DNA of 46,647 nt from a virus, in IMG/VR virus record IMGVR_UViG_3300045988_053844, positions 1 to 46,647 of that record; one strand, written 5' to 3'. Both the position numbers and the translations under genes were made by a program. Below, piece by piece: positions 13,931 to 45,880 of the stretch. The notes under the pieces were generated by a model. That model was not told the DNA's origin. It made no database searches and saw only the letters and a program-made list of their open reading frames with translations. Numbering within the stretch: position 1 is the first letter of the stretch; each line of letters begins with the position of its first letter.

Positions 13931-16900
13931 ATGGCTAATGAACCTTTAGACGAATTCGACCGCAGATTAAAGGCAAAAAAGGAATATGCTAATTATGGCT
14001 TTATTGCTGATATTGACAGCGGCTTGTCACCTGCTGAAACTCTAGGCTTTTATGACCTGCAAAAAATGAGTGACGATGAATACAACAAGTTTTCGCAGGC
14101 AGTAAAAAGCAATAGCTCACCGACGATTGATACTAGCAGTATTATCAACGACGATAAGCCGGGCATAGGCACTGCCGTAATGAACGGCCTTAAAGGTTCG
14201 GTGCGTGGCTTATTCGGTGCGGCTAAAGCGGCCGTTGACGCTAATATTGAAGCTCATAAGGGTGACAAGAATGTTGTTAAAGAGTATGACCAATCAGAGA
14301 ACATCAGCAAGGCTTTAGGCTATGTCACCGATGAGATTTTGAAGCGCGAAGAAGTTAAGGCTGATACGGCGGCTGGGCAACTTGGTTATGATTTGGCCGA
14401 AAATGGTATTCAGCTTTTAGTACAGCTTGCACTGACTAAAGGCGCAGGCGCTGCCGGTGCAGGAATGAAAACTGTACACGCTATCAGTATGCTTTACAAT
14501 GGTGCAAACATCAGCGGTGAACAATATCTGCGACTGCGCAAAGAAGGCGTAAACGCAAGCAGAGCGGCAGAAGCAGGCTTGATGAACGCTGTGCCGCAGG
14601 CGGTATTGGAAGAACTGCCGCTTGGCAGACTGCTAAAGAAGATGCCAGCCGGTAGCGGTCTGAAAGCTAAGATTTGGGAAGTCACTAAACGCGGCCTTGA
14701 AGAAGGCGTTACCGAAGCATTGCAGGAATTCCCGGAACAGGCGACGGACTTATGGGCAAAGAACCCAGGTGCAAGTACTGCAAAACTTGCGGAAATGTGG
14801 GGTGAGAACTGGCAGCAGAATTTGAAGGAAGCAGGCTATAGCGGCCTTATCGGCGGTATCCTTGGCGGTACAGTCAGTGGCGTAAGCGTTGCCGTTGACA
14901 GTGCCGTTGAGCACGTAGCCTTGAAAGCGAACGAAGAACGCAAGGCAAAGTTAGTAGCAGACGCTGAACGAATCAAAGAAACAGGCATTAACCCCGAATA
15001 CGCAGGAGCAAGCATTGACGCTATTAATGCTAACGTAGAGGATAATACTGTTACTGTATCAGCGCAGGATTTAGAAGGCTACAAGCAGACTAGCAACAAT
15101 AATAAACTTTTTGAGGAATTGGGAATTACCGAAGAAGAAGTTGCAATGGCTGCGGAGCTGGGGCAGGATATAGATATTAGCCGTGGCAAGTTTACGGCGG
15201 CTATGGCTAAGGACAATGCACTGTTTGAGGCTACAAAAGACAATATGTATTTTGACAGCAACGGCGAATTGTCGGACGGCGGCGCAAAGACACGTAAGGA
15301 ATTGCGAGAAGGCTATAACTTAACCAGGCAAGCAAGTACGGAGCTTGACGCAGAACTTGACGCTATTGTTGACAGCGCTACTAAAGCCGGTATGAATAAA
15401 TCTCATGCTGGCAATTTGCGCTTAGTGCTGGAGAGCCGCGCACTTATTGCAGACCCCGAAAATCCTGCTGCATGGCTGCAAAAGAATAAGCTGCGCTTTG
15501 AAGATGGCGGCAAAGCTAAACAAAAGAATGGCTGGTTTAGCAAGGGAGGAGTGCTTAAAAAAGAGCAATTCTATACTACTAATATTACCGGAAATGAGAT
15601 GGGACACTATTCAGATTTGAAGAGCTTGCAGAAAAAGGCTTTTGCATGGTATAGGGACAACTTGCAAGGCACGAGCGTTCATAATAGTGTATTGGGTGAT
15701 ATTAGAATAGATAAAGGGTATCAAGAAAATAATATTAAATTTGGCACAAGTGGCAGAAAGAAAATGGAACACACTTCCGCTAAAAAAGAAAAACTTTTTG
15801 CATTGCGCTATTTACGTGAAATTATGGAGAATGGTAATTTCGTTACAGAATCTGCGCCGCAAAAAGAAAAACATTCAGACGAGAATTTTTATTATATTCA
15901 TTCTGCACTGAATGTTAATGGTGAAAAACGTTATGTAGTTGTTACAGTAAGAGAACATAATGATAAATCATTATCATATTATAATCATAATGTTTTTAAC
16001 GAAAGTGAGTATAAAAAAATAGAGGACGCGTTCAAGCCCTCGGGTTCCGAGCAATTCAAGGCTCAGCCCAGTATCTCAAACAAAACGTCCTCTTTTGCTG
16101 ATAGTGTATCACAAAAAGCAGATAATTACAAGCAACAAAAAATTGTCAATGGTACACTGAAAGATAAAGGCATGATTTCCCCAATGGATGATGGTACTTA
16201 TGTTATCACGCTTTTTAAGGGCGCAGATGCAAGTACAGTTATCCACGAAACAGGACACTACTTTGTGGAAACCATGATTAACGAAGCATTGGCAGACCCC
16301 AGCAACACAAGACTAAACGCTGATGCGAAAAAGCTCATGGAGTATGCAGGCATTGACGCTGACACATGGGCAAGCGGTGACGTTGAAGCAAAGAGAGCCG
16401 GGCATGAAAAACTGGCAGAAGCATTTGAAACCTACATCATGGAAGGCAAAGCGCCTAGTGTTGGCTTGCGCGGAGTGTTCCAGAGATTCGCTAATTGGTT
16501 ATCAGCTATTTATAGTAAGATAGCAAGAAGTGAAAATGCGGCAGAATTAACGCCGGAAGTACGGCAGGTATTCGACAGAATGTTGGCGTGCCGTGAAGAA
16601 ATTGAAGTTATGGCGCGCATGGAGGGCATATTCGGCGGCTTGCCGGAGAATATAACATCCAAGTTATCAGACCAAAATAAAAAGACCTTGCAGGATAAAA
16701 TCTTGAAGGCTAAAGACAAGGCCGTGGATATTCTGACAAGGCGCGCAATGGCTGATTTCAGCGCAAAGCGCAGAGCTGAAAAGGCTGCTTTCATCGAAGA
16801 AATACGTCCGCAGATTGAGCAGGCAGTAGCGCAAGAACTTGTCAATCGTGCAAGAGTGCAAGTCGGGCAGGAATTTGGGCAAGAATCAAAACTTGCTAAT

Positions 16901-19900
16901 CCCGCAATTATTGCGAGAAAATACAGACACGTTTTAGGAAGCGTACTGCCAAACTATAATGATATGCTGAACGATACTAATGCCAGCATTGACGATATAC
17001 TTAATCCGATAGTTGAGTATCTTCAAGCAGAAGTCGACACATACGGCACACTTTCTAAAGAGCGTGTCGCAAACGCCAAAGATATGCTGGTTGCTATGTT
17101 CAGCAAGTCAAGACAGAAAACCGTTACGAATCCTACATTCGTTGTTGATGAGCACGGCATGGCTCATGCTAACTTTAGGCAGAAAATCAACGAATGGGAA
17201 ACAATCGAAGCTAATCCGCGTAGGCTTGCAAGAAAATACATTTATGGTAATGAGCGCATAAACTATAACGAACTGTTAAAAGATACAAACGGAGCTATTG
17301 ACGATATTTTGAATCCTATTGCTGACAGAATAGAAAGTGAGCTTGCGGAATACCAAGATACAGTCAAGAGTGAACGTGCGTTTTTTATCAATGGCAAGTG
17401 GGGCTACTTCGCCGCAACCAATAGAACAGAAGGCAAGTATGCAAACGATTTTGCAGGCATACCGGACCAGAGTGCAGTCTTGGTTGACTTCGGCGAGATA
17501 GGCAAAGACGGAAAACGTCATTGGACTAAGCGAGCTTTAGAGCAAGCGGATATTGAAGGCCTTGTATTCCATGAAGCAGGCGACAGTATTCGTAATGTCA
17601 ACTGGGTGTCAAGATACGTTCACGATTACGGCGGCAACATAAGCGACTTGACCAGCAAAAAAGGACGCAGGAAAATTGCCGAAAAGATTGCAAGAGGCGA
17701 AGACATAGCGGACTACTACGATTTGCGCAGCACCGGTTTAGATTATGGCGATGCCGAAATTAAGGCAGACTTTAAACATGTTGTCGATGAGCTGGACAGA
17801 CTGCAAGCGTTGAAGCATAGACTTGAAACAGACCCCGAAGGCGTCGACCTGGTAAAAGAAAGTAAGCGCAACCAATTATCGCAGGAGCAAAAAGAACTCT
17901 TTGACCAGATAGCAGAGGAAAACGGCTATGCCGGCGGCTATGAAATGGCAAGAGAGATTGTCGAAGGTTATACCGTCAATGAGAATGAGGGTAGCGACGT
18001 GCAGGATAACTGGGCGAGAAACTACATTCGCAACGGCGGTGACAAAGCAAAGCTCAAAAGCGAAGAAGGCTTGAAAGAGATTGCTGAAACTTTGGTAGAG
18101 GGTGAGCAGCTTACAGAGCTTAACGAGCTTAAAGCCTTGAAGCACGAGCTTGAAACTAATCCGGATAAAGTCGACCTTGTGGAGATGAGCAAAAAGCGTG
18201 CCTTGTCTAACGAGCAGAGAGAACTGTTTGACTGGGTGGCTGACAGTTTGGGCTATGACAGTGGCGATGCTATGGCGCAGGATATTTTGACTTCACCGAG
18301 CGAAAGAGCTATGGTACGTCAAGAGATTGACAAGGCTGTGAACCGCAGATTCCCCGACTTCATGCAGGAGCGTGAGCAGGCAAGAGAAGCGGCAAGGGAA
18401 GCACTCTATAATGACGAGAGCGGCGAAGTGGTGGCACTTGAACAACAGCTTATTGATGAGGCACTCAACGAAATAAGCAACAAGGATATTAAGCAAAAAG
18501 AGCGTGAGAATATTGCTAAAGTGCGGAAGCAGAACGCAGACAATTTTGCTAAACGCTATATTCAGACTTTGCCAGCAGGCGAAGTTATGAAGCCGAGAAG
18601 ATTTGCTATGGCAGAACGCAGAGCGGCGGCTAATGCAAACAAGGCTGCTAAAGCCGGACTTTTGGAAGAAGCGGCTATGTATAAGCAGCAGCAGATGATT
18701 AATCACGCTTTGTATCGTGAAGCAGTCAAGGCCAAACATCAGATTGAAAGCGCAAGAAAGTACGTCAAAAAGCAGATGCACAGCAAGAAAGAAGTGTGGG
18801 GAACAGAGCAGCACTTCTTCCAGATGTGCGCATTGCTGGAGCGTATGGGCTATCACCGCAAGGACTTTAACACCAACGGCAGAGAAGTGCAGCCGCTTAG
18901 CGATTACATTGCAGAGATGCAGGCAAAGTACGGTGACGAAATTATTTCTATGCCGGAGTTTGTTTTGAACCCGAATAATGATTTGACCAATGCACCGCAG
19001 CTTAGCCTTGCGAACTATATGGACGTTATCGACGCACTGAAAAACATTCGTGCTATTGCAAAGCAGGATACGCAGATGAACAAAATCGCCGCCGGTGAAG
19101 CCTTTGAACAGGTTAAGGCTGACACGATAGCGCACCTGCAAGAATTGCCGGTAGAGTATGAGGCGGAGATTGGCAGCGACAGCAAAAAGAGCCTGCGTAA
19201 GCGAATTGTCGAATGGCCTAAAAACTTCATGGCTACGCTGCGTAATGCTGATAACTTCTTCTTGATGATGGATAATTGGACAGAAGGTTATTTTACTAGG
19301 GAATTTTACAACAAAATCAACCATTGCGCAGATATGGAAAGCACGATGCTTGAAGGTTATCAGAAGGAGCTTACAGATGCTTTGCAGAAATGGGAGCCAG
19401 ACAAAGAAACCGGCATTGCGCACGATAAAAGAATTTACTACGAAGAACTTGGCGGCAGCGCAGATAAGCATGCTTTGATTGCTATGCTGTGCAACCTGGG
19501 CAGTGATAGTAATGCTGCAAGGCTGTGTTCGCAAAAACCGGTAGGCGTAAAGAATTCTGATATATGGGTGGAAGAATCGGAGCTTATAGGCAAAGAAGAA
19601 GCAATGCTGCAAACCAAACAAAACCTTATAGAGTTTTTGTGCAAGCATCTGACTAAAGCAGATATTGCCTATGCCCAGGCGCGTATCAATGCAGCAAGTA
19701 AATTCTGGCCTATGCTGGCAGAAGTCAACCGCAGAACAAAAGGCTTTGAGCCGCCTAAGATTGAAGCGTCGCCGCTGGTGATGAAGCTTGCAAGCGGTGA
19801 AAGCGTGGTATTTGAAGGTGGTTACTTCCCGTTGGAGCGTGATACACGTACCGGCAGTATGCCCGGTAAATTCGACAGAATCGACAGTACCGAAGAAGGC

Positions 19901-21286
19901 AGCAGACCGCCGCAGCGGACTTTGGCTACTAATACCGGTTCCAGCAAGGCGCGTACTGGCGGCAAGTATCCCGTCGACTTATCGCGCGGCAGTGAGGTTA
20001 CGGCGGTGAAAAGCACTATTCATGATATTTGTTATCGTGAAACAATGCTTGATTTCAGAAAGATACTGAACGATGAGGATATTTACCGCAACATGGTTGA
20101 GCGTTTAGGCGATACCAACGTAAGACTTTTGAGAGAGTTTTTGCAGGCTTGCGCTAATCCGTACGGCAATAAAACAGCATATATGGCAGAGAATCTGTTT
20201 ACGAAAGCCGCCAACGCTTTACGTAATATCGCAACAAATACGGCTATTATGCTTAACTTCAAAACGGCAATGCAGAACTTTTCTAACATCCTGCTATATG
20301 GTAATAGTGTAGAAGGCTTTACTCATGCCGACGCTTTCAGAGCCTTGTACCGTGGCTTTACAGGTGAAGGCAGGGCAGAAGTAGATGCGATTTGTGCAAA
20401 AAGCGTGTTTATGCGTGAACGCATGGAAGTACCAGACGTTACATTGAGAGATATTCAGAATCGTTCCGACCTTAACTCAATTGAGAAAAAGACGCTGAAA
20501 TATGGTGCAATGCTGTTAGGCTACACTGATATGATGACTGCAAAGCCGGTATTTGCAGAAGCATACATGAAGAAAATCAACGAAGGCAAGACGGAAGAGG
20601 AAGCACTAGACTTTGCGAACGCTGTTATTCGGCGCACGTTAGGCAGCAGCCGAATTCATGATGTATCAAGTCTGCAACGTGGCAGCGGCTTATTCAGACT
20701 GTTTACGATGTTCCAGGGATTTTTCAACACACAGTTTAACCAATGGGACAGAGAAGCACATATCGCCAAAAGGTTATGGAATAGCGGCGAGAAAAAAGAA
20801 ATGGCTGAACGGCTGATTGCTTTCGTTACCGCTAAATGGTTAGGCGTATGCTTGCTGAACGTAGCTATTGCAGAGCTTTCTTTGACCGCGCCTTTTGAGA
20901 AAGACAAAAAAGACGATTGGAATAATCTTGCAAAAGAGCTTATCAACTACCCGTTGTCTATGGGCGGTCCCGTCGGGCAAGCGGCGAACGTTGGTGTACA
21001 GAACTTGCTAGGTATGAGGAACTACGGCTACAGACTGACTGCGGCGCAAGGCTTGATTGACAGAGGCTTTACTGTTGCAAGACGCTTGAACGACGTTGCG
21101 GAAGGCAAGAAAGAACCCGGCGAGTTAATAGAACAAGCAGCATATGTCGCCGGCGCATATCTTGGTATTCCCAGTGGTATCTTTAATATCATATTCAACG
21201 GCATAGATATTGCTGCTGATGATATGGACTTTGAGCTGCAAGACATTTACAAACGCAGGCCAAAAAGCGAACGCAAAAAAGATTGA
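13931..21286 (+). CDS. Giant polyvalent internal virion protein with a zincin HExxH metallopeptidase module, 2451 aa
   Basis: Uninterrupted 7.36-kb ORF in the T7 gp16 position. HETGH at nt 16244-16258. Gly/Ala-rich hydrophobic N-terminal segments. Two internally duplicated modules of about 55-60 aa. Confidence 0.8.
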   Translation: MANEPLDEFDRRLKAKKEYANYGFIADIDSGLSPAETLGFYDLQKMSDDEYNKFSQAVKSNSSPTIDTSSIINDDKPGIGTAVMNGLKGSVRGLFGAAKAAVDANIEAHKGDKNVVKEYDQSENISKALGYVTDEILKREEVKADTAAGQLGYDLAENGIQLLVQLALTKGAGAAGAGMKTVHAISMLYNGANISGEQYLRLRKEGVNASRAAEAGLMNAVPQAVLEELPLGRLLKKMPAGSGLKAKIWEVTKRGLEEGVTEALQEFPEQATDLWAKNPGASTAKLAEMWGENWQQNLKEAGYSGLIGGILGGTVSGVSVAVDSAVEHVALKANEERKAKLVADAERIKETGINPEYAGASIDAINANVEDNTVTVSAQDLEGYKQTSNNNKLFEELGITEEEVAMAAELGQDIDISRGKFTAAMAKDNALFEATKDNMYFDSNGELSDGGAKTRKELREGYNLTRQASTELDAELDAIVDSATKAGMNKSHAGNLRLVLESRALIADPENPAAWLQKNKLRFEDGGKAKQKNGWFSKGGVLKKEQFYTTNITGNEMGHYSDLKSLQKKAFAWYRDNLQGTSVHNSVLGDIRIDKGYQENNIKFGTSGRKKMEHTSAKKEKLFALRYLREIMENGNFVTESAPQKEKHSDENFYYIHSALNVNGEKRYVVVTVREHNDKSLSYYNHNVFNESEYKKIEDAFKPSGSEQFKAQPSISNKTSSFADSVSQKADNYKQQKIVNGTLKDKGMISPMDDGTYVITLFKGADASTVIHETGHYFVETMINEALADPSNTRLNADAKKLMEYAGIDADTWASGDVEAKRAGHEKLAEAFETYIMEGKAPSVGLRGVFQRFANWLSAIYSKIARSENAAELTPEVRQVFDRMLACREEIEVMARMEGIFGGLPENITSKLSDQNKKTLQDKILKAKDKAVDILTRRAMADFSAKRRAEKAAFIEEIRPQIEQAVAQELVNRARVQVGQEFGQESKLANPAIIARKYRHVLGSVLPNYNDMLNDTNASIDDILNPIVEYLQAEVDTYGTLSKERVANAKDMLVAMFSKSRQKTVTNPTFVVDEHGMAHANFRQKINEWETIEANPRRLARKYIYGNERINYNELLKDTNGAIDDILNPIADRIESELAEYQDTVKSERAFFINGKWGYFAATNRTEGKYANDFAGIPDQSAVLVDFGEIGKDGKRHWTKRALEQADIEGLVFHEAGDSIRNVNWVSRYVHDYGGNISDLTSKKGRRKIAEKIARGEDIADYYDLRSTGLDYGDAEIKADFKHVVDELDRLQALKHRLETDPEGVDLVKESKRNQLSQEQKELFDQIAEENGYAGGYEMAREIVEGYTVNENEGSDVQDNWARNYIRNGGDKAKLKSEEGLKEIAETLVEGEQLTELNELKALKHELETNPDKVDLVEMSKKRALSNEQRELFDWVADSLGYDSGDAMAQDILTSPSERAMVRQEIDKAVNRRFPDFMQEREQAREAAREALYNDESGEVVALEQQLIDEALNEISNKDIKQKERENIAKVRKQNADNFAKRYIQTLPAGEVMKPRRFAMAERRAAANANKAAKAGLLEEAAMYKQQQMINHALYREAVKAKHQIESARKYVKKQMHSKKEVWGTEQHFFQMCALLERMGYHRKDFNTNGREVQPLSDYIAEMQAKYGDEIISMPEFVLNPNNDLTNAPQLSLANYMDVIDALKNIRAIAKQDTQMNKIAAGEAFEQVKADTIAHLQELPVEYEAEIGSDSKKSLRKRIVEWPKNFMATLRNADNFFLMMDNWTEGYFTREFYNKINHCADMESTMLEGYQKELTDALQKWEPDKETGIAHDKRIYYEELGGSADKHALIAMLCNLGSDSNAARLCSQKPVGVKNSDIWVEESELIGKEEAMLQTKQNLIEFLCKHLTKADIAYAQARINAASKFWPMLAEVNRRTKGFEPPKIEASPLVMKLASGESVVFEGGYFPLERDTRTGSMPGKFDRIDSTEEGSRPPQRTLATNTGSSKARTGGKYPVDLSRGSEVTAVKSTIHDICYRETMLDFRKILNDEDIYRNMVERLGDTNVRLLREFLQACANPYGNKTAYMAENLFTKAANALRNIATNTAIMLNFKTAMQNFSNILLYGNSVEGFTHADAFRALYRGFTGEGRAEVDAICAKSVFMRERMEVPDVTLRDIQNRSDLNSIEKKTLKYGAMLLGYTDMMTAKPVFAEAYMKKINEGKTEEEALDFANAVIRRTLGSSRIHDVSSLQRGSGLFRLFTMFQGFFNTQFNQWDREAHIAKRLWNSGEKKEMAERLIAFVTAKWLGVCLLNVAIAELSLTAPFEKDKKDDWNNLAKELINYPLSMGGPVGQAANVGVQNLLGMRNYGYRLTAAQGLIDRGFTVARRLNDVAEGKKEPGELIEQAAYVAGAYLGIPSGIFNIIFNGIDIAADDMDFELQDIYKRRPKSERKKD

Positions 21287-24543: not shown

Positions 24544-24900
24544 ATGATAGAACAGTCTTTAGATGCGGCATTGAACTCTATTATTAACGTCATATCTGGT
24601 TGCGTAATAACGTTGCTTATTACTATGTACCGGCAAAAGAAGAAACAAAATGATGCGTTGAAAGTGGGACTGCAAGCGTTGCTGCGTGACAGAATTATCC
24701 AGGCTTATAATCACTATGTCCAGGATAGAGGATGGATACCTATCTATGCCAAAGAGAGTATCGACGCCTGCTATCGGAGTTACGAGGCGCTAGGTGACAA
24801 TGGCGTGATTGACAGTCTGATGGAGCAGTTAAATGAACTGCCTAACTATGATTTAAAAGAACATGATGAAAAATGTAAGGAGTGTAAGTGTCATGCGTAA
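24544..24900 (+). CDS. N-terminally membrane-anchored protein, 118 aa (lysis-cassette position)
   Basis: One predicted TM (IINVISGCVITLLITMY) followed by a KKKQ stop-transfer and a soluble domain. Confidence 0.5.
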   Translation: MIEQSLDAALNSIINVISGCVITLLITMYRQKKKQNDALKVGLQALLRDRIIQAYNHYVQDRGWIPIYAKESIDACYRSYEALGDNGVIDSLMEQLNELPNYDLKEHDEKCKECKCHA

Positions 24901-25147
24901 AATAATTAATATGTTAAAGAAGAACGACAACGCTTACAGCGTAGGCAGAATCTGCGCTGTGATTGGCTTTGTTGTTTGGGTATTGGTTACACTATGGCTT
25001 GCTTTTTTTGCCAAGACCTGGAGCGGCTACGAGAGTTGTACGCTTGGTATGGTTACACTGCTGCTTGTACAGTTAGGCAATAAGGCTATTGAAACAAGAA
25101 TGTTTAAGGTGAAAAGTGAGGAGCGGAACGATGAGCGATTGGAATAA
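24893..25147 (+). CDS. Putative holin (two TM segments), 84 aa
   Basis: AAGGAG RBS. TM1 ICAVIGFVVWVLVTLWLAFF and TM2 LGMVTLLLVQLG, with a charged C-terminus. Immediately upstream of the lysin candidate and overlapping it. Confidence 0.5.
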   Translation: MRKIINMLKKNDNAYSVGRICAVIGFVVWVLVTLWLAFFAKTWSGYESCTLGMVTLLLVQLGNKAIETRMFKVKSEERNDERLE

Positions 25148-25751
25148 AGCATTAGCGACAGAGATTGCAAAAGGATTGATTAATACAGGAATTGAAGGTG
25201 GCTATGACAGCGTGGCGAAGTCTACGGCTTATGCTTATCCGTCAATCGGCGTGTCACAATGGGAAGGGAATAGAGCAAATGAGCTGCTGAGAGCTATCCC
25301 CGGCGGCGCAGAGTATGCAGACCGCACTTACATTGATATTAAGGCAAGCGGCGAACTGCCGATGCTGAAAGAGTTGTTAAGAAGCGACGCAGGACAACAG
25401 GCACAATTAGAACAGTTGTCACGTGACTGCCTGCAATATGTCGAAGTGCTTCAGCAGGTGCCGACGTTGGACGATACACGTTGCATTATCTATGCCGGAA
25501 TGTGGTGCCCTACATCTACTTGGGTAGTTAAGCGCTTTTTGGCTAACAGATATATGCACGTTGACCTGCGCAGTCTGGAAGCACTCTATAAACTGTTTAA
25601 AAACTACTACTGGGTTGCCGCCGATGTTGGCGAGATGTATAGAGCAGGTTACGCCAATAGAGCGGAAGCTACGTATCAGTACGTCGCTGGCATTGACTTA
25701 ACAACACCATACGGCGTGCCTGCTTATGGGTATGCTGGCAACGGAAGATGA
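25131..25751 (+). CDS. Putative endolysin (lysozyme-like), 206 aa, no obvious cell-wall-binding domain
   Basis: Position after the holin. SIGVSQWEGNRANELL resembles the G-x-x-Q-W-x-G-x-R motif of the lysozyme-like phage family as I recall it. Confidence 0.45.
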   Translation: MSDWNKALATEIAKGLINTGIEGGYDSVAKSTAYAYPSIGVSQWEGNRANELLRAIPGGAEYADRTYIDIKASGELPMLKELLRSDAGQQAQLEQLSRDCLQYVEVLQQVPTLDDTRCIIYAGMWCPTSTWVVKRFLANRYMHVDLRSLEALYKLFKNYYWVAADVGEMYRAGYANRAEATYQYVAGIDLTTPYGVPAYGYAGNGR

Positions 25752-25885
25752 TTTAAAGCTTATGCTTTAGATACAGTCACCGACAAGAGGTTTAGTTATT
25801 CCCTCTCCTATACGTGTAGCATTTTCTGGTATTTTTATTTGCGTAATAGCCGGTGACACATTCTACAATGATTGGAGGTGATACA

Positions 25886-25984
25886 ATGGAAGAACTGAAA
25901 ATGTTTGTGCTTGACAAAAAATTTTGGGTAGGCCTTATTATAGGCTTTACTCTTGGTGCATTGCATCATTATTTCGGATTATAA
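25886..25984 (+). CDS. Small single-TM peptide, 32 aa
   Basis: Strong GGAGGTG RBS at 25874-25880. Sequence MEELKMFVLDKKFWVGLIIGFTLGALHHYFGL. Below the length cut-off of the ORF track. Confidence 0.35.
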   Translation: MEELKMFVLDKKFWVGLIIGFTLGALHHYFGL

Positions 25985-26180
25985 CAAACTACCAGGCACA
26001 TAATAATAATCTTCTACAAAAGGCGTAAATTCGCACAAAAATACTTCGCCTATGAGCGTTTTAAATTTAGTGCCGCTTATGATTTATCCTGCGGCGAGCT
26101 AAAGCCGCTTGTAGGCGAAGTTTGTGCTTCTGACGCGATTTATTATATTTTGCAAATATAGATATTTATATGAGGTAATA

Positions 26181-26591
26181 ATGAAAGATGAAACAAAACG
26201 CAAGATTGATAAAGCTGTTAAGATTGGTCTTATTGTTGCTGGTCTTTTCCTTATCTGCAATGACATTTACTGGCGGTGGCACAGCAGAAGCGGCGCCCCA
26301 GCGGATAACGCTGTCAATCGAACAGTGGAATCAATTCAAAAATCAAACGAATCTGCTGGAAGCGAAGTTGAATCTGGCAGACGAGAAATTGAAGCAGCAG
26401 AAGAACACGTCGACAGAACTGTTGACGCAGTTGAACGAAGCGAAGAAACAGCTCAATCTAACGCAAGAAGCGCTGATGAACTCCAAACACTCATTAGCGA
26501 GTGCCGAGGAATCATTGAATCACAGCGAAGCATTATACAAGAAGTTGACAGAGCAAATGGAATTAGAACGTCGGGAAGCAAAGAGAATTAA
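26181..26591 (+). CDS. Frame-A protein: N-terminal TM plus acidic helical domain (i-spanin-like architecture), 136 aa
   Basis: GAGGT 4 nt before the ATG. TM KIGLIVAGLFLIC, then an E/R/S-rich helical region. Fully overlapped by the frame-B ORF. Confidence 0.4.
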   Translation: MKDETKRKIDKAVKIGLIVAGLFLICNDIYWRWHSRSGAPADNAVNRTVESIQKSNESAGSEVESGRREIEAAEEHVDRTVDAVERSEETAQSNARSADELQTLISECRGIIESQRSIIQEVDRANGIRTSGSKEN

Positions 26592-26655
26592 ATGCCAACG
26601 GAATATTTATGCAAGCAGTGCATTATTATTCTTGCTTTGTGCAGCTGCAAAATAA
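26188..26655 (+). CDS. Frame-B protein: signal-like N-terminus, Leu-heptad coiled coil, C-terminal hydrophobic anchor, 155 aa
   Basis: Its ATG lies 7 nt downstream of the frame-A ATG, in the +1 frame. LLRLVLLLLVFSLSAMTF, then LEAKLNLADEKLKQQ...LYKKLTEQMELERREAK, then IYASSALLFLLCAAA. Confidence 0.4.
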   Translation: MKQNARLIKLLRLVLLLLVFSLSAMTFTGGGTAEAAPQRITLSIEQWNQFKNQTNLLEAKLNLADEKLKQQKNTSTELLTQLNEAKKQLNLTQEALMNSKHSLASAEESLNHSEALYKKLTEQMELERREAKRIKCQRNIYASSALLFLLCAAAK

Positions 26656-26819
26656 AATTATTGGATGGTGTTACGATGGATGAAAAGGAACAAATACCGG
26701 CAGGCATTATTACAATGTTATTAAAAGGTTATGTAGAAACTATTGCTTTTCAAAGGAAACTCATCTGTGCCGCTTTGATTGGTTGGGTGGCAACAGCTAT
26801 TGCTTTTATTTGTATGTAG
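26592..26819 (+). CDS. Small membrane protein, 75 aa (alternative start ATG 26676, 47 aa)
   Basis: ATG directly follows the frame-A TAA in the same frame. IIILALCSC is lipobox-like. C-terminal TM LICAALIGWVATAIAFICM. Confidence 0.35.
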   Translation: MPTEYLCKQCIIILALCSCKIKLLDGVTMDEKEQIPAGIITMLLKGYVETIAFQRKLICAALIGWVATAIAFICM

Positions 26820-26834
26820 GTAGGTGACAACAAA

Positions 26835-27074
26835 ATGGACACACTGCTGAAGAACACGCGGGATTGGTTGCAAACTTCAACGCGGCGTTCATTCAGCGCG
26901 GTATTGGTGGAGGCAAAGATAACACCACGACAGGTAGAAATTTGCGAACTGAAATTTGTGAAAGGCTTGACCAATTATCAGATAGCAGCGGAGCTGAATG
27001 TATCTGTTAAAACGGTAGACAAGGAACTTAATACTGCGTATAAACGAATAACAAATGTATTATCATTCCTTTAA
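26835..27074 (+). CDS. LuxR / sigma-70 region-4 type HTH transcriptional regulator, 79 aa
   Basis: ITPRQVEICELKFVKGLTNYQIAAELNVSVKTVDKELNTAYKRI is a canonical region-4/LuxR-type HTH. Confidence 0.65.
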   Translation: MDTLLKNTRDWLQTSTRRSFSAVLVEAKITPRQVEICELKFVKGLTNYQIAAELNVSVKTVDKELNTAYKRITNVLSFL

Positions 27075-27081
27075 ATGCGGG

Positions 27082-27112
27082 GAGCCGTCCTTTTTAGGGC
27101 GGTTCTTTTTTT
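27082..27112 (+). terminator. Rho-independent terminator
   Basis: GAGCCGTCCT / AGGGCGGTTC forms a stem with two G-U pairs and a tttt loop, followed by ttttttt. Confidence 0.6.
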
Positions 27113-27174
27113 ATGGGGAATATATAGGGATTGTTTTGCTAAAAATCAGTTACACTATAAGTGAGGTGATAAGT

Positions 27175-27597
27175 ATGTACGGACAATATAACCCTTATAT
27201 GGGAGCAACACCGCAGATGCAGCAACGGCTGAATTATTTGCAGCAACAGCAACAGCAGATGTATCAACCAACTATGCAGCAGCCTATGCCTATGACATTG
27301 AAAGGCAGAATTGTTACCGGCATGGATGAAGCAAAGGCAGCTCAAATTGACCTGGACGGAACGAGCACTTTCTTTCCATGCCCTGCCGAAGGAAAGATTT
27401 ACGAAAAACTTATAGGCTTAGACGGCCTGCCGATTTTCAGAGTATATCAAATTAACAATTCGCAGAAGCAGCCTGCATATGCTGAACAAAACATTGTAGA
27501 TAGATTAGTAGAACGTGTGGACAGATTGGAAAAGCAGATTGGAGGGATGAACCATGAACCCGATGCAGATAATGGCAATGTTACAGAACAGCGGTAA
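27175..27597 (+). CDS. Cargo protein 1: Q/M/P-rich N-terminus plus globular domain, 140 aa
   Basis: GTGAGGTG RBS. Begins MYGQYNPYMGATPQMQQRLNYLQQQQQQMYQPTMQQPMPM, then LKGRIVTGMDEAKAAQIDLDG.... Confidence 0.6.
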   Translation: MYGQYNPYMGATPQMQQRLNYLQQQQQQMYQPTMQQPMPMTLKGRIVTGMDEAKAAQIDLDGTSTFFPCPAEGKIYEKLIGLDGLPIFRVYQINNSQKQPAYAEQNIVDRLVERVDRLEKQIGGMNHEPDADNGNVTEQR

Positions 27598-27778
27598 TCC
27601 TATGATGATGCTTACACAATTAGCACAGCAGAATCCTATGATGAGCCGCGCGATGCAAATGGGGCAAGGCAAGAACGAAGTGCAGTTAAAAGAAACTGTA
27701 CGTAACCTTGCAAGGCAACGCGGCATGAGTGACGAACAGTTTACTCAGTTTTTAAGTCAATTCGGTTTAAAGCTCTAA
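27554..27778 (+). CDS. Cargo protein 2: Met/Gln-rich small protein, 74 aa
   Basis: GGAGGG RBS at 27541-27546. Begins MNPMQIMAMLQNSGNPMMMLTQLAQQNPMMSRAMQMGQG. Overlaps the upstream gene by 44 nt. Confidence 0.55.
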   Translation: MNPMQIMAMLQNSGNPMMMLTQLAQQNPMMSRAMQMGQGKNEVQLKETVRNLARQRGMSDEQFTQFLSQFGLKL

Positions 27779-27825
27779 TGCGCGCAATGAGCTTTACATA
27801 TAATTCCTGGAGGTGAAATTTTATC

Positions 27826-28539
27826 ATGGAAGGTGCAAACATTGTTCCGGTAATGGACATGAACAGAAACAACAACTACGGCGACTGCTGGGGCGGCGGT
27901 ATGTGGTTTATGTGGATTATCGTTCTTTTCGCTCTTATGGGCGGCTGGGGCGGTAATTGGAATAACCGCGGCAATATGGGCGCAGAAATCTTTGCTAATG
28001 GCAGTATGACACGTGACCAAATCGCAGACCAATTTTCTATGCAGGATATTAAAGAAGGTATTCGTGGCGTTCAAAATGGTTTGTGTGACGGCTTCTACGC
28101 TCAGAACAGCACTATGCTGAATGGTTTTAATGGTGTACAACGTGACATTATGCAGACCGGCTATCAGTTAGGCAGTCAGCTTTCCGAAAATCGTTTTGCT
28201 CAACAGCAATGCTGCTGCGAAACTAACAGAAATATTGACGCAGTGCGCTATGAGAACGCGCGTAATACCTGCGATATTGTCACCGCAGTAAAAGAGGACG
28301 GCGAAAAGACCAGAGCAGTTCTGATTGCCAACCAAATCCAAGACTTGCGCGACAAGCTGGCAGACCGTGACCGCGACTTGCAGACTGCAAACTTCCAATT
28401 ATCTCAACAGGCGCAGAGTGCAAATCTTATCGGTACATTAAGACCTTATCCGCAACCGGCTTATATTACGAATAGCCCGTATCAAAGCATTGCTGCTAAC
28501 GTAGCCGGTGCTTGTGGCTGTGCGTATAACGCAGGCTGA
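27826..28539 (+). CDS. Cargo protein 3: G/W/N-rich membrane protein with CCCE motif and coiled coil, 237 aa
   Basis: GGAGGTG RBS. NNNYGDCWGGGMWFMWIIVLFALMGGWGGNWNNRG is a TM segment. Also contains QQQCCCETNRN and a helical C-terminal half. Confidence 0.65.
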   Translation: MEGANIVPVMDMNRNNNYGDCWGGGMWFMWIIVLFALMGGWGGNWNNRGNMGAEIFANGSMTRDQIADQFSMQDIKEGIRGVQNGLCDGFYAQNSTMLNGFNGVQRDIMQTGYQLGSQLSENRFAQQQCCCETNRNIDAVRYENARNTCDIVTAVKEDGEKTRAVLIANQIQDLRDKLADRDRDLQTANFQLSQQAQSANLIGTLRPYPQPAYITNSPYQSIAANVAGACGCAYNAG

Positions 28540-28621
28540 AAATAATAAGTTATGTGCATTAACTGCACTGCAAGGGACGGTGCAGGCCGTCCCTATTGCT
28601 TTAATAAAGAGGTGAAAACAA

Positions 28622-29044
28622 ATGATTTGCAATCAGAAATCCGCATTAACAACGGTAGCAACGGCGGCGCAGACTGTTGCAGCGAACGGCTTTGTCGGCT
28701 TCCCTACTAACAATCTTCTGACTGGCGTATCTATTAAGCATCCGGCAGGAAGTACAAGCGTTAACCTTATCCAGGGACTTTACCTTGTGACTTTGAACGC
28801 TGATATTACCCCGACTGCGGCAGGCGATATAGGTTTAAATCTTCTTCGTAATGGTGTAGCAGTACCGGGAGCAGAAGCAACAGTAACCGGTGCAACAGGC
28901 GATACATATAATATCTCCTTTGCTACACTGCTTAGAGTATTGCCTAGTTGCTGTGTGATTGATAATAATGCAGCGTTGCAGGTGCAGGCTACGGCAGCAG
29001 GCACTATCAGCAATGTATCTTTGAGCGTTGTAAAAATGGCGTAA
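28622..29044 (+). CDS. Cargo protein 4: stand-alone BclA C-terminal-domain-like (C1q/TNF-like jelly-roll) protein, 140 aa
   Basis: GLYLVTLNADITPTAAGDIGLNLLRNGVAVPGAEATV and the ending TISNVSLSVVKMA parallel GFYKITVIANTATASVLGGLTIQVNGVPVPGTGSSL...IIIEKVA of the BclA CTD, recalled from memory. Confidence 0.55.
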   Translation: MICNQKSALTTVATAAQTVAANGFVGFPTNNLLTGVSIKHPAGSTSVNLIQGLYLVTLNADITPTAAGDIGLNLLRNGVAVPGAEATVTGATGDTYNISFATLLRVLPSCCVIDNNAALQVQATAAGTISNVSLSVVKMA

Positions 29045-29056
29045 GGGGGCGACGTT

Positions 29057-29506
29057 ATGCACAAACTAAAGAAATATTGGGAGAAGGTAAGCGCTGACCC
29101 AGTAAAGATAACAGAGATGGAAGAAATAGTTTGTGAAGCGTTAGAAGAAGTGCGCGGACGCTGCCCGAGGCTGTTTTGGGATACTGCATATAAACTGCAT
29201 TGTGTAGCTTATGGCCCGCATTTTGACGAAGAGCTTGCAAAAAAGGCAGTTTCCAAAATGAAGAACATTGACGGTACGTGTGGCGAACATTGGACGTTTG
29301 AACAGACTAGCCAATTTGCAGACCAACAGGGAATACGTTGTAAAGCTGATTGGTACTATGTTATGAATATGCTGCATAGTGATTTTGCTGAAATTCTTGG
29401 AAGCGACACTAACAACTACGTGCGTATGGCAAAAGCGTATATAAACGACCCGGACGCATCAGAGGGAAAAGTTCTTGACGCTTGGCTGGCGCAGATGGAA
29501 GCCTAA
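29057..29506 (+). CDS. Cargo protein 5: unknown function, 149 aa
   Basis: AAGGGGG RBS. The motif YGPHFDEELAKKAVSKMKNIDGTCGEHWTFEQT recurs in Firmicute phage hypothetical proteins as I recall. Confidence 0.6.
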   Translation: MHKLKKYWEKVSADPVKITEMEEIVCEALEEVRGRCPRLFWDTAYKLHCVAYGPHFDEELAKKAVSKMKNIDGTCGEHWTFEQTSQFADQQGIRCKADWYYVMNMLHSDFAEILGSDTNNYVRMAKAYINDPDASEGKVLDAWLAQMEA

Positions 29507-29659
29507 CTGTAAACCTTAAAAGTGAAATGAGCACGTATAAAGCACATATAGTATGCAACAGGTATGTAACAAATAGCGTAAAGAATGACTTAAAATAAGG
29601 ATGCTCAATTTACCAAACGTTAATAGAGAAGGCTATCTCAATCAATCACAAATCGCAAG

Positions 29660-29697
29660 AAAAGCCCGTAACCATGCAGGTTGCGGGCTTTTTCTTT
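29660..29697. terminator. Bidirectional rho-independent terminator inside the attP region
   Basis: AAAAGCCCGTAACC / GGTTGCGGGCTTTT forms a 14-bp stem with one G-U pair and an atgca loop, with an A-run before and a T-run after. Confidence 0.7.
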
Positions 29698-29746
29698 ACC
29701 TCCGTTATTTTCAAAAAGTGTCCACAGCTTATAGAAAATAAGCTAC

Positions 29747-29788
29747 GTATGTAACAAGTATGTAACGGGTATGTAACACGTATGTAAC
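29747..29788 (+). repeat. Four tandem 11-bp repeats GTATGTAACnn (integrase arm-type sites)
   Basis: Copies at 29747, 29758, 29769 and 29780, abutting the int stop codon at 29792-29794. Confidence 0.8.
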
Positions 29789-29791
29789 AAA

Positions 29792-30811
29792 CTATATTAA
29801 ATTTATAGCCTCTAATAGCTGTTCCAACGTCTTATGAGTGTAAACCCTTTCCGTTACATCGGAGCTGGCGTGCCCCAAAATTAATTTCTTGATTTTTACG
29901 TTTACGTCTTTATCATCAAGCAGGCTTGCACAGGTGTGACGTCCGTCGCCGGGCAAGTGGTCCATCTTAAACATATTCATTACCGGTTCCCAGTATCTGC
30001 TGCGGTACGTGTCATAGGATATATTCTTTCCCCGCTCATCAGAGAAGATGCATTTGCCGGTGCTGCGTTCGTAGGCAGCCTTGAAGAAGTCGAAGATTTT
30101 ATCAGCAATCGGGATTCTTCTGCCGCGGCCTGCCGCAGTTTTCATGCCGCCAACGAAGAATTTATTTTCAAAGTCAACGTCTGCTTTCTCAACTTTCACT
30201 AGCTCGGTGGGGCGCATACCGGTATAACAGAGGATAAGCACAGCTTGCACTTTTATATCCTGGCTGTTCTCCCATAATATAGCAAGCTCCTTTTTGGTCA
30301 GCGGATTGTGTATCCTGCTCTCAACCTGCGGCGGCAGGCTGGTAAGCTCAACATAATTCTTTACTATAATGTCATTGGCAAGTGCGTACTTGGCCATCAG
30401 ATTACACACGATTCGGATTGCCTTCTTGGTGGCGTAGCCTTTGTCGCAGTCATTAATAATCTGTTGGAATTGCGCTGTCTTAATATCTTTGAACGGTATA
30501 TCCCATAGAGGCGCGCAGCGTTTGTATGCCGCTTTGTATTGGTTGGATTCTTCCTTGCCGTCAACATAGGTTGCGGCTTCCCATCTCTCGTGTACCTGGG
30601 CGAACGTCAAGCCTACGCTTTCTATGTCATAGGGTGATTGATTGTATTCAGCCAGGGCGTTAAGTGCTTCCGTGCGCTTTGCATAGTAGCCTAGTATTTT
30701 CATAAGCTGACGGCCGTCATTGGTAAAGCCCGTTGTAATGCGGACTATATACGGCCGCCGCCGATTCCCGGTTAGTTTTGTAACAGAACCATAGCCGTTA
30801 GGTAATTTCAT
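29792..30811 (-). CDS. int: Tyrosine recombinase / phage integrase, 339 aa
   Basis: N-terminal arm-binding-like MKLPNGYGSVTKLTGNRRRPY. Catalytic-domain motifs TGMRPTEL, HxxR-like (GRHTCASLL) and LGHAS...VYTH. Confidence 0.9.
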   Translation of the reverse strand: MKLPNGYGSVTKLTGNRRRPYIVRITTGFTNDGRQLMKILGYYAKRTEALNALAEYNQSPYDIESVGLTFAQVHERWEAATYVDGKEESNQYKAAYKRCAPLWDIPFKDIKTAQFQQIINDCDKGYATKKAIRIVCNLMAKYALANDIIVKNYVELTSLPPQVESRIHNPLTKKELAILWENSQDIKVQAVLILCYTGMRPTELVKVEKADVDFENKFFVGGMKTAAGRGRRIPIADKIFDFFKAAYERSTGKCIFSDERGKNISYDTYRSRYWEPVMNMFKMDHLPGDGRHTCASLLDDKDVNVKIKKLILGHASSDVTERVYTHKTLEQLLEAINLI

Positions 30812-43962: not shown

Positions 43963-44463
43963 ATGGACTACGCAGAAGCCGCAGATTATGCAGAAAGCTT
44001 ACTCTTTGCAAAAAACGCGATTGGTAAAGCGGTTGTTTCCGCCAGGATGCAGCAGAGGGCGGAACGCTTGGAATTTGATATGAGGACCGGCGGCGATTCT
44101 ACGGCACGGCTCGCGATTCAAGCGGTAACGCCGCTTGCCGCGGTCCGTTGTATTTATCTTGGGCAGGCGTTTTTGGTTTACCAGCCGGAAAAATGGCTGG
44201 ATGTTATGGAACGTTCGCTTCTTCTGTTTCGGCAGCGGTTTGGTGACAAGTCTTATAAGGCGATTCAACATCGGTACGTATACCATTGGACGGTCCGCAA
44301 AATTTCCGTAATTGATGAGATTAGCCCGCAGGTGTATGCGCTTCGCCGCCGCTCGTTCATTGACGGCTTGCTCATGCTGGCGATTCAAGAAGGATTGATT
44401 CGGATTGATATAAACGCGAACAGTTTCCAAAAGGCCAGGGCAGAACAGAAGCAAGAAAAGTAA
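43963..44463 (+). CDS. Sigma-region-4/ArpU-like putative late transcription regulator, 166 aa
   Basis: Last gene of the early operon. AIQHRYVYHWTVRKISVIDEISPQVYALRRRSFIDGLL is region-4-like. Confidence 0.45.
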   Translation: MDYAEAADYAESLLFAKNAIGKAVVSARMQQRAERLEFDMRTGGDSTARLAIQAVTPLAAVRCIYLGQAFLVYQPEKWLDVMERSLLLFRQRFGDKSYKAIQHRYVYHWTVRKISVIDEISPQVYALRRRSFIDGLLMLAIQEGLIRIDINANSFQKARAEQKQEK

Positions 44464-44514
44464 AGGCAGGCGCGCGGCGCTGCCGCTTCCAAACATTAAG
44501 AAAACGCTTGCTAT

Positions 44515-44546
44515 AAAGCCCGGTGCTGCCGGGCTTTTTTGCTTTT
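44515..44546 (+). terminator. Rho-independent terminator ending the rightward early operon
   Basis: AAAGCCCGG / CCGGGCTTT stem with a tgctg loop, then a ttttgcttttc tail. Confidence 0.75.
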
Positions 44547-44681
44547 CGCTTCCCTAAAGTATGTGCCACGCGCGCAGAAAAGGGCCGCCACGTGTTCCAA
44601 TCATGGCAGCCCTAGGATTATACCTGTAAAACATTTCGACTTCAAAAATATATAGCCTGCTCGCATTTATAGGATACAGAA

Positions 44682-44715
44682 AAGCCCCGGGGCGTTTGCC
44701 CTGGGGCTTGTTTTT
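44682..44715. terminator. Bidirectional terminator ending the minus-strand operon
   Basis: AAGCCCCGGGG / CCCTGGGGCTT forms an 11-bp stem with one G-U pair and a 6-nt loop, flanked by an A-run and a T-run. Confidence 0.7.
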
Positions 44716-44735
44716 GAATAGTTTAAGTTGCTGAT

Positions 44736-44939
44736 TCAGCGGTCTAAACAAAAATTGCTTACGCTTGTTCCGTATACTTCCGCCTTATATATGCGGCCGG
44801 GGTTGCCGGTGAAGAACCAGCAAACAAAGAACACTTTCGGTCCGTAAATTGCAACGCTGCAATTATTCGCAAGGTCAATAATAAGATTATGACTATTACG
44901 ACACACGCCGTCAAGCTGATAAAATTTCTTTCGCTTCAC
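44736..44939 (-). CDS. Small Cys-containing beta-rich protein, 67 aa (GTG start; an ATG at 44969 is the alternative)
   Basis: AAGGAGG RBS 7 nt before the GTG. GTGA overlap with the upstream stop. Last gene before the terminator. Confidence 0.4.
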   Translation of the reverse strand: MKRKKFYQLDGVCRNSHNLIIDLANNCSVAIYGPKVFFVCWFFTGNPGRIYKAEVYGTSVSNFCLDR

Positions 44940-45115
44940 TTTAAAGCCTCCTTGATTTCTGCGGTCCATTCGTTCCGGCTTTTAAAGCCGCCTGCTTCCG
45001 CAACCATAGCGGCAATGATACGGCATGAAAAATCATGTTCCGCTTTATGCATTGCCGGTTGCTGGCGAAATTCTTCAATTTTCAGCAATAAATTTAACGC
45101 TTCTTCACGTTTCAT
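44936..45115 (-). CDS. Small helical protein, 59 aa
   Basis: AAGGAGG RBS. Sequence MKREEALNLLLKIEEFRQQPAMHKAEHDFSCRIIAAMVAEAGGFKSRNEWTAEIKEALK. Below the length cut-off of the ORF track. Confidence 0.4.
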   Translation of the reverse strand: MKREEALNLLLKIEEFRQQPAMHKAEHDFSCRIIAAMVAEAGGFKSRNEWTAEIKEALK

Positions 45116-45133
45116 TGCTTCAACCTCCTTGTT

Positions 45134-45772
45134 TTAATAAGCGTTTACCTTCCAATCGTTCCAATCGTCAAAGGTGACAACTGACAGCATTTTACGCAAA
45201 ATGCAAATATTATCTTGGTACGCCGCCTGTTGCTTTTTCAGCATCTGCCAGGCGGCGGCTGCCGCTTCTGCGTCGCTGATGATTTCGGCCGGGCTTTTAC
45301 CGCTGGCCTGCTTTTCCAGGCGCTTCAGCTCGTCGCGCATGTAGTCACCGTTTAAAATGCGGTTATTCCAATCACCGCCGGGGCGGTCCCACGGGCCAAC
45401 CGTAAAGCTCGTATGAACGTGCTCGCGCTTGTCAATGTCATAACTGATTGTTGTTATATCGTAGGTGACAGAGTAGCCGGCGGCGCGGACGGCGTCGCGG
45501 ATAGGCTGCAGCCGTGCGCTTTTCTCGCGCGTTTCCGCCTTGAAAATATCGGTATATGCGATATAGCAGCGACAAACGGCCTGCGCTTCTGCGTTTACCG
45601 CTTCTGCCGCGAAAAATTCGGCGGCGAAATGGTTGGCCAGGTCGGCCACGGTCTGCGCCGGTGTAATACGTGCCACGTGTTCGCGGCATAAACGCCAGCA
45701 TAACGCGCGGCGCGGTTCTACCGCTGCCAGGCTCGTTTCTATAGCTTTCGCTAATAATTCGGCTTTATTCAT
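45134..45772 (-). CDS. Unknown protein, 212 aa, G+C-rich
   Basis: AAGGGAGGA RBS. Ala/Arg-rich sequence using GCG/GCC/CGC codons, unlike the virion genes. Confidence 0.6.
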   Translation of the reverse strand: MNKAELLAKAIETSLAAVEPRRALCWRLCREHVARITPAQTVADLANHFAAEFFAAEAVNAEAQAVCRCYIAYTDIFKAETREKSARLQPIRDAVRAAGYSVTYDITTISYDIDKREHVHTSFTVGPWDRPGGDWNNRILNGDYMRDELKRLEKQASGKSPAEIISDAEAAAAAWQMLKKQQAAYQDNICILRKMLSVVTFDDWNDWKVNAY

Positions 45773-45880
45773 TGTTTATGTCCTCCCTTTTAAATTTTCA
45801 AGGTTCATTTTTTGGCCTGCCTCATCAGTACCGGGGCGGCCAGTCCCCGATATACGCCGCCGCGCTGGCGGCGTTTCGGC

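Follow-up and report, generated by a model that had tools for sequence, protein, structure and literature searches.

What is the purpose of the six genes that lie between the lysis genes and attP in IMG/VR virus record IMGVR_UViG_3300045988_053844? The stretch analyzed here (positions 1 to 46,647 of that record, referred to below as the window) appears to be a complete temperate tailed-phage genome of ~46.6 kb. The genes in question are six open reading frames (ORFs), g1 to g6, all on the + strand at 26835-29506, upstream of attP and the integrase gene. Together they constitute a regulated phage accessory cassette, which is an element of a known kind, and their protein content matches no described system. 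The conserved core of the cassette consists of g2, g3, g4 and a small, beta-rich, cysteine-bearing protein that is either g5 or another protein in the same position (slot B); g1 and g6 often accompany the core as accessories. Tentatively, and with well under even confidence, we favor an operon under its own regulation, whose products would form a multiprotein complex that is tethered to the membrane and serves the phage, perhaps for exclusion or for control of the host membrane.

Homologous loci were gathered by iterative searches, and the fetched loci were reduced to 34 g4 clusters. Gene counts below are given per cluster, with denominators of 29-32 depending on the gene. Families were sought in Pfam, PHROGs, NCBIfam, PADLOC-DB v2, PDB profiles and Rfam, and AlphaFold2 (AF2) models were made of g4 and g2.

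The first gene, g1 (26835-27074), starts 15 nucleotides (nt) beyond the last lysis-region gene and is followed at 27079-27108 by an intrinsic terminator on the + strand, in which a 13-bp stem precedes TTTTTTT (dG -18.4). A strong hairpin with a T-run stands directly after g1 in most of the related loci checked, with differing sequence. Such a terminator would insulate g2-g6 against upstream (late or lysis) transcription. Direct reading of the + strand beyond it gives a cassette leader at 27113-27174, with two G-rich boxes (ATGGGGA, 27113-27119, and TAGGGA, 27125-27130), a -10-like TATAAG (27156-27161) and the ribosome-binding site (RBS) GAGGTGA (27163-27169). Related loci likewise have a leader of 60-130 nt after the g1 terminator, with a -10-like box just ahead of the RBS. 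For example, TATA(A/G)G/T directly precedes the RBS in loci L005, L010, L013 and L025, and extended -10 motifs (TGATATAAT and TGATACAAT) are present in the more distant loci L021 and L023. The leader may thus hold a promoter. TAGGGA-like boxes also occur in the leaders of L005, L007 and L010, and these repeated TAGGGA/ATGGGGA-like boxes, which lie past the g1 terminator and ahead of the -10-like box, are candidate operators for g1.

At the other end, the cassette is closed by a bidirectional terminator hairpin (arms 29660-29673 and 29679-29692, 93% complementary), which an A-run precedes and a T-run follows. This hairpin (29660-29692) lies within the attP region (29551-29791), between GTATGTAACA arm-type repeats at 29551-29573 and 29747-29791. 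In total, an 11-nt GTATG(T/C)AAC motif occurs six times (twice to one side, four times to the other) around ~175 bp that contain the bidirectional hairpin, and these repeats are probably the integrase arm-type sites of attP. A tyrosine integrase gene is located just outside the cassette, at 29792-30811 on the - strand (Phage_integrase 6e-14; phrog_1 4.6e-45), and its presence, together with the GTATGTAACA repeats that flank the terminator hairpin, supports the placement of attP. A related IMG/VR provirus contig terminates at window position 29614. An earlier note on this DNA, made from the letters, had described six genes with terminators between the lysis genes and attP, and had regarded them as a discrete cargo cassette in moron position. 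The ORFs, hairpins, integrase and repeats agree with that description, and the cassette is common to different phage backbones, bounded by terminators and situated beside integrase or host genes.

The same arrangement is widespread. Loci with g4 homologues repeatedly show, in order, a helix-turn-helix (HTH) protein, proteins of ~142, ~75, ~240 and ~130-143 amino acids (aa), and a DUF7841 protein. This order recurs in dozens of independent loci, which is far beyond chance, and is found in Phascolarctobacterium, Megasphaera, Ruminococcus and other metagenome-assembled genomes (MAGs), as well as in phage contigs. A g2 homologue lies upstream of g4 in 26 of 30 clusters, g3 is found in 22 of 30, and a g1 homologue is directly upstream of g2 in 16 of 29. 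Directly after g4, 29 of 32 clusters encode a small beta-rich, cysteine-bearing protein (g5 in 16, slot B in 13), and g6 is present in 11 of 32. Co-occurrence had been proposed as a check on the cassette, and the genes indeed travel together in many gut phages and prophages with different backbones.

Integrated copies are found at prophage ends beside host genes (on a 545-kb Phascolarctobacterium contig, on a 379-kb contig, and in L039 and L040), and phage-form copies adjoin an integrase gene (L038, L041); an identical cassette protein is encoded beside the integrase in phage-form contigs and beside host genes when integrated. The upstream phage genes vary, from a giant SLT/helicase protein in some loci to ordinary holin and amidase sets in others, and we therefore conclude that the cassette is mobile among backbones. 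Related IMG/VR phages cease to resemble the window at 27113 and 29497, which are the cassette edges. At least 6222 g4 homologues exist, none of them named. Relatives of g4 are encoded on 379 IMG/VR stretches versus one plasmid record, and plasmid carriage was rejected, the single match being in an 861-kb replicon. The cassette families appear to be restricted to phages.

In its location between lysis genes and attP, its flanking terminators, its own leader, and its exchange between backbones with break points at the edges, the cassette resembles phage morons. Its terminators are clear, and for a promoter of its own the window offers only the -10-like TATAAG, the consensus scan being empty. The break points and the differing backbones mark it as a discrete, exchanged insertion. 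However, with six genes, among them a regulator of its own, it is larger than the usual one or two genes, and its core is also found in phages that have no lysogeny genes, as well as within structural or replication regions.

The probable regulator of the cassette, judging from its domain and position, is the 79-aa g1 product. As the earlier note had predicted, this is an HTH protein of the LuxR/GerE or sigma-70 region-4 type, and it exceeds the Pfam cut-offs for both Sigma70_r4_2 (PF08281, 30.6 bits versus 25.7) and GerE (PF00196, 27.1 versus 23.5). Like other HTH-only proteins of these groups, g1 is essentially the HTH domain alone; a receiver or ligand domain and sigma regions 2 and 3 are absent. 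It also differs from GerE/LuxR proteins in that a terminator stands between g1 and its presumed target genes. With PADLOC, g1 matches merely the HTH portion of a CARF model.

The probable membrane anchor of the proposed complex is g4 (237 aa; 27826-28539, +; phrog_16490, no assigned function), which consists of an acidic N-terminal tail, a single Gly/Trp-rich hydrophobic segment (residues 21-39) and a long helix (residues ~115-205). No other cassette product has a hydrophobic segment. The N-terminal flank of the segment is acidic (K+R 0.9, D+E 3.0), and this charge distribution suggests that the large g4 domain is cytoplasmic. The sequence QQQCCCE, previously pointed out in what the earlier note called a membrane protein, is present, and the CCC is invariant across the family. 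Also highly conserved is the C-terminus (LRPxPxPAYxxxSPY...CGC), which is near-invariant between phages of Clostridium and those of Negativicutes. Conservation of this degree suggests that the protein either self-assembles tightly or has a host partner that is itself very conserved. The supposed resemblance of g4 to YjcZ turned out to be compositional only: NCBIfam gave no match for g4 even at E <= 1. Similarly, g4 has no match among lysis PHROGs or Pfam families, and PDB profile searches with g4, g2, g3, g6 and slot B returned just chance-level coiled-coil or spurious matches. No significant NCBIfam match exists for any of g2-g6.

Upstream of g4 are two genes that would encode soluble partners. 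The first, g2 (140 aa; 27175-27597, +; phrog_21718, no assigned function), most likely starts at 27175, with an ATG seven bases past GAGGTGA; the mechanical ORF start at 27055 falls inside g1 and the terminator. Its product begins with a Q/M/Y/P-rich, helix-containing N-terminus, which is followed by a small conserved domain with beta structure (GRxVxxxDEAxAxxIDxDG...IYxK in the family alignment) and a C-terminal helix. The second, g3 (74 aa; 27554-27778, +), has three NP-x-M/Q motifs, a C-terminal FG(L/I)K that is conserved in the family alignment, and no family match in Pfam, PHROGs or NCBIfam. The odd composition noted earlier is real: residues 1-42 of g2 include 13 Q, 7 M, 5 Y and 5 P, and g3 is 16% M and 16% Q, compared with 4.7% Q and 2.8% M for the long + strand ORFs of the window. 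The start of g3 overlaps the end of g2 by 44 nt, and this overlap, which is kept in all close relatives, suggests that the two genes are translationally coupled. The contention that no described system has such a composition also stands, as PADLOC, NCBIfam, Pfam and PDB are empty for g2-g4 and the corresponding PHROGs carry no function assignment.

Two hairpins on the + strand separate g4 from g5 at 28554-28594 (GTGCATTAACTGCAC, 28554-28568; GGGACGGTGCAGGCCGTCCC, 28573-28594). A strong GC-rich hairpin, often with a T-run, directly follows g4 in nearly every related locus, distant ones included, and this conservation suggests that g2-g4 are produced in excess over the downstream genes. The hairpins probably act by attenuation or by stabilizing the RNA, and thereby set how much of g2-g4 is made relative to g5-g6; alternatively, they could be a protein-binding RNA element. 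The sequence type that recurs in loci of the g5 type is GTGCATTAACTGCAC plus GGGACGG..CCGTCCC, and in those of the slot B type, TTCCGC-loop-GCGTGA plus a GC hairpin. An Rfam scan gave sub-threshold matches only, driven by terminators.

A relationship to a solved structure exists for g5 (28622-29044, +), a 140-aa standalone protein of the C1q/TNF-like, BclA_C type, in which an N-terminal Cys is conserved and a CC pair lies internally. The g5 protein had been proposed to resemble the BclA C-terminal domain. The single sequence does not reach the Pfam threshold on its own (24.1 bits and E = 3.6e-5 against BclA_C, PF18573, under the cut-off of 38), but the family-level assignment stands: a profile of 14 family members matches 9H38, the F-BclA C-terminal domain, over its full length with E = 3.8e-6. 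Profile positions 7-139 align to residues 13-145 of the 9H38 chain, and BclA chains follow at E 0.02-0.1. Several g5 homologues, 80-98% identical, carry a precomputed PF18573 match. At least 7926 g5 homologues exist, and the best 120 listed are all ~140-170 aa. According to PMC12357932, the structure 9H38 shows the C1q-like head of the fibre at a spore-appendage tip, and domains of this family (PF18573; 9H38, 1WCK) are found in the Bacillus exosporium nap and at appendage tips. However, BclA-type exosporium glycoproteins have a collagen-like GXY stalk and an exosporium leader, and g5 has no collagen stalk, GXY repeats or leader. Furthermore, the phage that encodes g5 likely has a host that does not sporulate.

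In ~40% of clusters, the g5 position is taken by slot B, which has a Cys-rich N-terminus. Slot B has no Pfam or PDB match, and its profile finds no endospore appendage (ENA) chain in PDB. With hhalign, no relationship is seen between g5 and slot B (probability 0.3%), and the idea of distant homology was dropped. Neither has a Pfam match to the endospore appendage subunits (ENA DUF3992, F-ENA DUF4183), and more generally, membership in YjcZ, GerQ or ENA families has no profile support.

The last gene, g6 (149 aa; 29057-29506, +), had been listed as an unknown. It is a DUF7841 protein (PF25223, 93.1 bits versus a cut-off of 25.2), a family with 1086 representative proteins at E <= 0.001, and is best regarded as an accessory partner. 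One of the proteins retrieved with DUF7841 (P0386, 243 aa) is a natural fusion of a slot B-type region (residues 1 to ~125) to DUF7841 (residues 136-237), in which the two components are physically joined. In other proteins of 288-377 aa (P0414, P0423 and P0496), DUF7841 is fused to RGG-rich or D/E/R/Y-rich low-complexity regions, coiled coils and PPMPPMP tails, and these low-complexity parts resemble in style those of g2 and g3. A g2-like domain was sought within the long fusion proteins and is not present; Pfam shows no further significant domain in them.

The similarity of g5 to spore proteins raises the question of whether the cassette serves the bacterium, and here the host matters. The best genomic match to g4, 88% identical, is in Phascolarctobacterium succinatutens CAG:287. 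P. succinatutens is not known to sporulate. A 98% g4 match is on a 1.5-kb contig binned as Oscillospiraceae, which is too short for trust. On the 545-kb Phascolarctobacterium contig, ExbB, ExbD and TonB genes lie just downstream of the cassette, as in diderms, and P. succinatutens has been described as gram-negative (PMC11891138). The P. succinatutens match and the TonB-system neighbors in L005 make a diderm Negativicutes host most likely.

The earlier note had read the cassette as a surface or spore-surface remodeling module, that is, as lysogenic conversion in which products expressed from the prophage decorate the envelope or spore in the manner of BclA and exosporium proteins. Its moron position and its own terminators are consistent with this idea, as is the placement of g5 in the BclA_C/C1q-like superfamily, with a spore-appendage tip protein as its best solved relative. 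The small Cys-rich beta proteins, the GerE-type regulator and the Q-rich protein also recall building blocks of the coat and exosporium, and such blocks assemble without signal peptides (PMC12357932 and general background). Nonetheless, the closest hosts are Phascolarctobacterium and Megasphaera, one integrated copy lies beside TonB/ExbBD genes, and P. succinatutens is described as gram-negative. Relatives of g4 are also encoded by a crAss-like phage and in MAGs of non-sporulating phyla. No export signal is apparent in g2, g3, g5 or g6, as they lack a hydrophobic segment, the large g4 domain is predicted to be cytoplasmic, and there is no match to YjcZ, GerQ, DUF3992 or DUF4183. Finally, the core extends beyond lysogens to phages without lysogeny genes. 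Decoration of the spore or cell surface is thus not supported, and we consider lysogenic conversion of this kind very improbable.

The phages without lysogeny genes deserve closer description. Clostridium perfringens phages XP41-N3 and PMQ04 carry g2, g3, a relative of g4 and slot B in the same order, have no annotated integrase, and encode nearly all their genes on one strand. According to a recent paper, close relatives of the XP41-N3/PMQ04 group are without lysogeny genes, and CPD1 has an integrase. In L022, a MAG contig of a T4-like phage, the core has a 1478-aa tail-fibre gene on one side and T4-type neck and baseplate genes on the other. The occurrence of the core in phages without lysogeny genes and in a T4-like structural region indicates that the cassette is not purely a lysogenic-conversion module. 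Conservation in strictly lytic relatives as virion components had been named beforehand as an outcome that would speak against surface remodeling. It was found in part, namely as the core in C. perfringens phages without annotated lysogeny genes and in the structural region of L022.

These locations bring up a different possibility, in which the core forms or assembles a fibre, decoration or ejection component of the virion. By analogy with T4 fibritin, g4 might supply a coiled-coil stalk, or else act in ejection by inserting into the membrane, and g5 or slot B might supply a jelly-roll head. In viral fibres, trimers of the C1q/TNF-like type are common, and so are coiled-coil stalks. Besides the L022 case, the core immediately follows the receptor-binding protein gene in Dulem virus 36 and is found downstream of tail-fibre and lysis genes both in the window and in many relatives, and the lack of signal peptides fits assembly in the cytoplasm. 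This reading is distinctly unlikely, because a strong, conserved terminator isolates the cassette from the late operon, the cassette has its own regulator, and in other phages the core is in early or replication regions. Moreover, it is swapped as a module among unrelated backbones, which is unusual for parts that fit one virion, and no PHROG of the cassette has a structural annotation.

Proximity to lysis genes suggests yet another role, in lysis or its timing, with g4 acting at the membrane alongside holin, endolysin or spanin in a spanin-like or antiholin-like manner. The cassette is directly downstream of lysis genes in the window, L005, L040 and L041, and in crAss-like phage cr116_1, g4 alone is present beside the lysis genes. 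Its N-terminal anchor, long helix, cysteines and Pro-rich C-terminus make g4 similar to Rz/Rz1 spanins (i-spanin and o-spanin) and other bitopic coiled-coil phage membrane proteins. However, g4 has no profile similarity to spanins, its predicted topology is the opposite of theirs, with the large domain cytoplasmic by the charge rule, and it matches no lysis PHROG or Pfam family. Spanin membership was rejected, as there is no lysis PHROG match and g4 homologues are not restricted to phages of diderms, the core being present in phages of Gram-positive C. perfringens. In several phages, the core is distant from the lysis genes. The window also already holds a separate spanin-like gene at 26188-26655, and a lysis role for the cassette is quite improbable. 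The product of that gene (155 aa) has a signal-like segment at its N-terminus, a coiled coil, and a hydrophobic segment at its C-terminus, and it weakly matches an Rz-like spanin PHROG (phrog_2975, E = 0.022); a unimolecular spanin there would fit a diderm host.

If the long helix of g4 indeed faces the cytoplasm, the cassette might instead encode a membrane-anchored cytoplasmic scaffold that localizes phage replication or assembly, or blocks host division. The predicted N-out/C-in anchor and the long helix would suit this task, and likeness to phi29 p16.7 or EzrA is confined to topology. The C-terminal peptide of g4 is extremely conserved across phyla, which suggests that what it binds is universally conserved as well; the low-complexity, Q/M/Y-rich partners of g4 could serve as scaffold, and the core is beside replication or recombination genes in XP41-N3, Dulem virus 39, Dulem virus 36 and L029 (in the last, after DNA polymerase and RecE). 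Against this, no homology to such proteins was found, g4 is acidic and has no DNA-binding features, and a C1q-like trimer has no evident role in a scaffold. Insulation of the moron type at prophage ends also suggests expression in the lysogen, where a block of division would be harmful. Accordingly, host takeover of this kind is improbable.

We return to the operon for a membrane-tethered complex. The small LuxR/sigma region-4 HTH protein g1 is encoded at the end of the lysis region, and a strong terminator comes next; g2-g6 begin from their own leader; the post-g4 hairpin probably lowers expression of g5 and g6; and the bidirectional terminator ends the unit beside attP. Under this model, the g4 protein would be a single-pass anchor, with its short acidic N-terminal tail probably outward and its long helix and Cys clusters probably cytoplasmic. 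The partners g2 and g3, with their low-complexity regions and coupled translation, would be soluble. The g5 protein, a predicted C1q-like trimer, and g6 would be less abundant distal parts, perhaps joined to g4 through conserved cysteines, which are found at the C-terminus of g4, within g5, and at the N-terminal ends of both g5 and slot B. We infer one complex from the coupling of g2 and g3, the conserved attenuator after g4, the conserved cysteines and the fusion of slot B to DUF7841. Because the core is in both temperate and non-lysogenic phages, whose hosts belong to several phyla, it most likely serves the phage at a conserved host-membrane process. Phage exclusion or host-membrane control is the function that we prefer, as a possibility rather than a probability.

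Several observations weigh against this interpretation. PADLOC-DB v2 has no match for g2-g6, so that a role in defence or exclusion is without homology support, and known superinfection-exclusion proteins are usually the products of single genes that act in one host, whereas the cassette has 4-6 genes and spans phyla. The host labels of exotic MAGs (Spirochaetaceae, Rickettsiales, Bacteroidales) may be binning errors. The hydrophobicity of the g4 segment (1.69) is barely above the usual transmembrane threshold, and the charge rule is the sole guide to the predicted topology. With an alignment of 59 sequences, the AF2 model of g4 has a predicted local distance difference test (pLDDT) score of 47.6 and shows only helices 29-37 (transmembrane-like) and 115-205. 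The model of g2 is also of low confidence (pLDDT 57.7), and Foldseek found no match for it in PDB at E <= 0.001. A consensus promoter scan of the window did not reveal a full, canonical sigma-70 site upstream of g2.

A broader and unlikely possibility is that phages across phyla use the core, with DUF7841, to build a self-assembling structure, nucleated at the cytoplasmic membrane of the host, in which cysteines or metal provide the cross-links. The components of this structure would resemble parts of spore appendages and the exosporium, it would be made by phages of both sporulating and non-sporulating hosts, and it would have no described counterpart.

The remainder of the window is consistent with a tailed phage. 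Terminase-sized and portal-sized ORFs (judged on size, with no profile check) are close to its start, and large tail and tail-fibre genes extend as far as 24524. Small membrane proteins and the weak spanin-like gene occupy 24544-26819, upstream of the cassette, and past the cassette the minus strand encodes the tyrosine integrase and a repressor-type regulator. A g2 homologue is present on 18 contigs, the longest of which has 46,661 bases and is close to the window in size. The tail region has one ORF of 2451 aa followed by a 755-aa tail-fibre protein (13931-21286), which is unusually large for a 46.6-kb phage. At 44000-46647, GC content rises up to 0.49-0.53, GC skew flips sign and there are ORFs on the minus strand, unlike the remaining genome. 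In a related locus (L008, 2580-3650), a radical-SAM gene lies in the tail-fibre region, where the near-twin L007 has a DUF4376 tail-fibre gene.

In the literature on DUF7841, on BclA, prophages and C1q, on Phascolarctobacterium prophages and on C. perfringens phages, we found no description of the cassette. Its families abound in the gut viromes of humans and animals, and are without a name, a curated function or a solved structure. A conserved, mobile operon with its own regulation, present in both temperate and non-lysogenic phages of hosts from several phyla, points to a general phage function, and solving it would annotate thousands of hypothetical genes together. Experimental work has several handles, including a defined core, a likely anchor, a natural fusion, conserved hairpins, cultivable C. 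perfringens phages and Phascolarctobacterium lysogens. Such studies could reveal a new phage route to action on the host membrane or to competition between phages.

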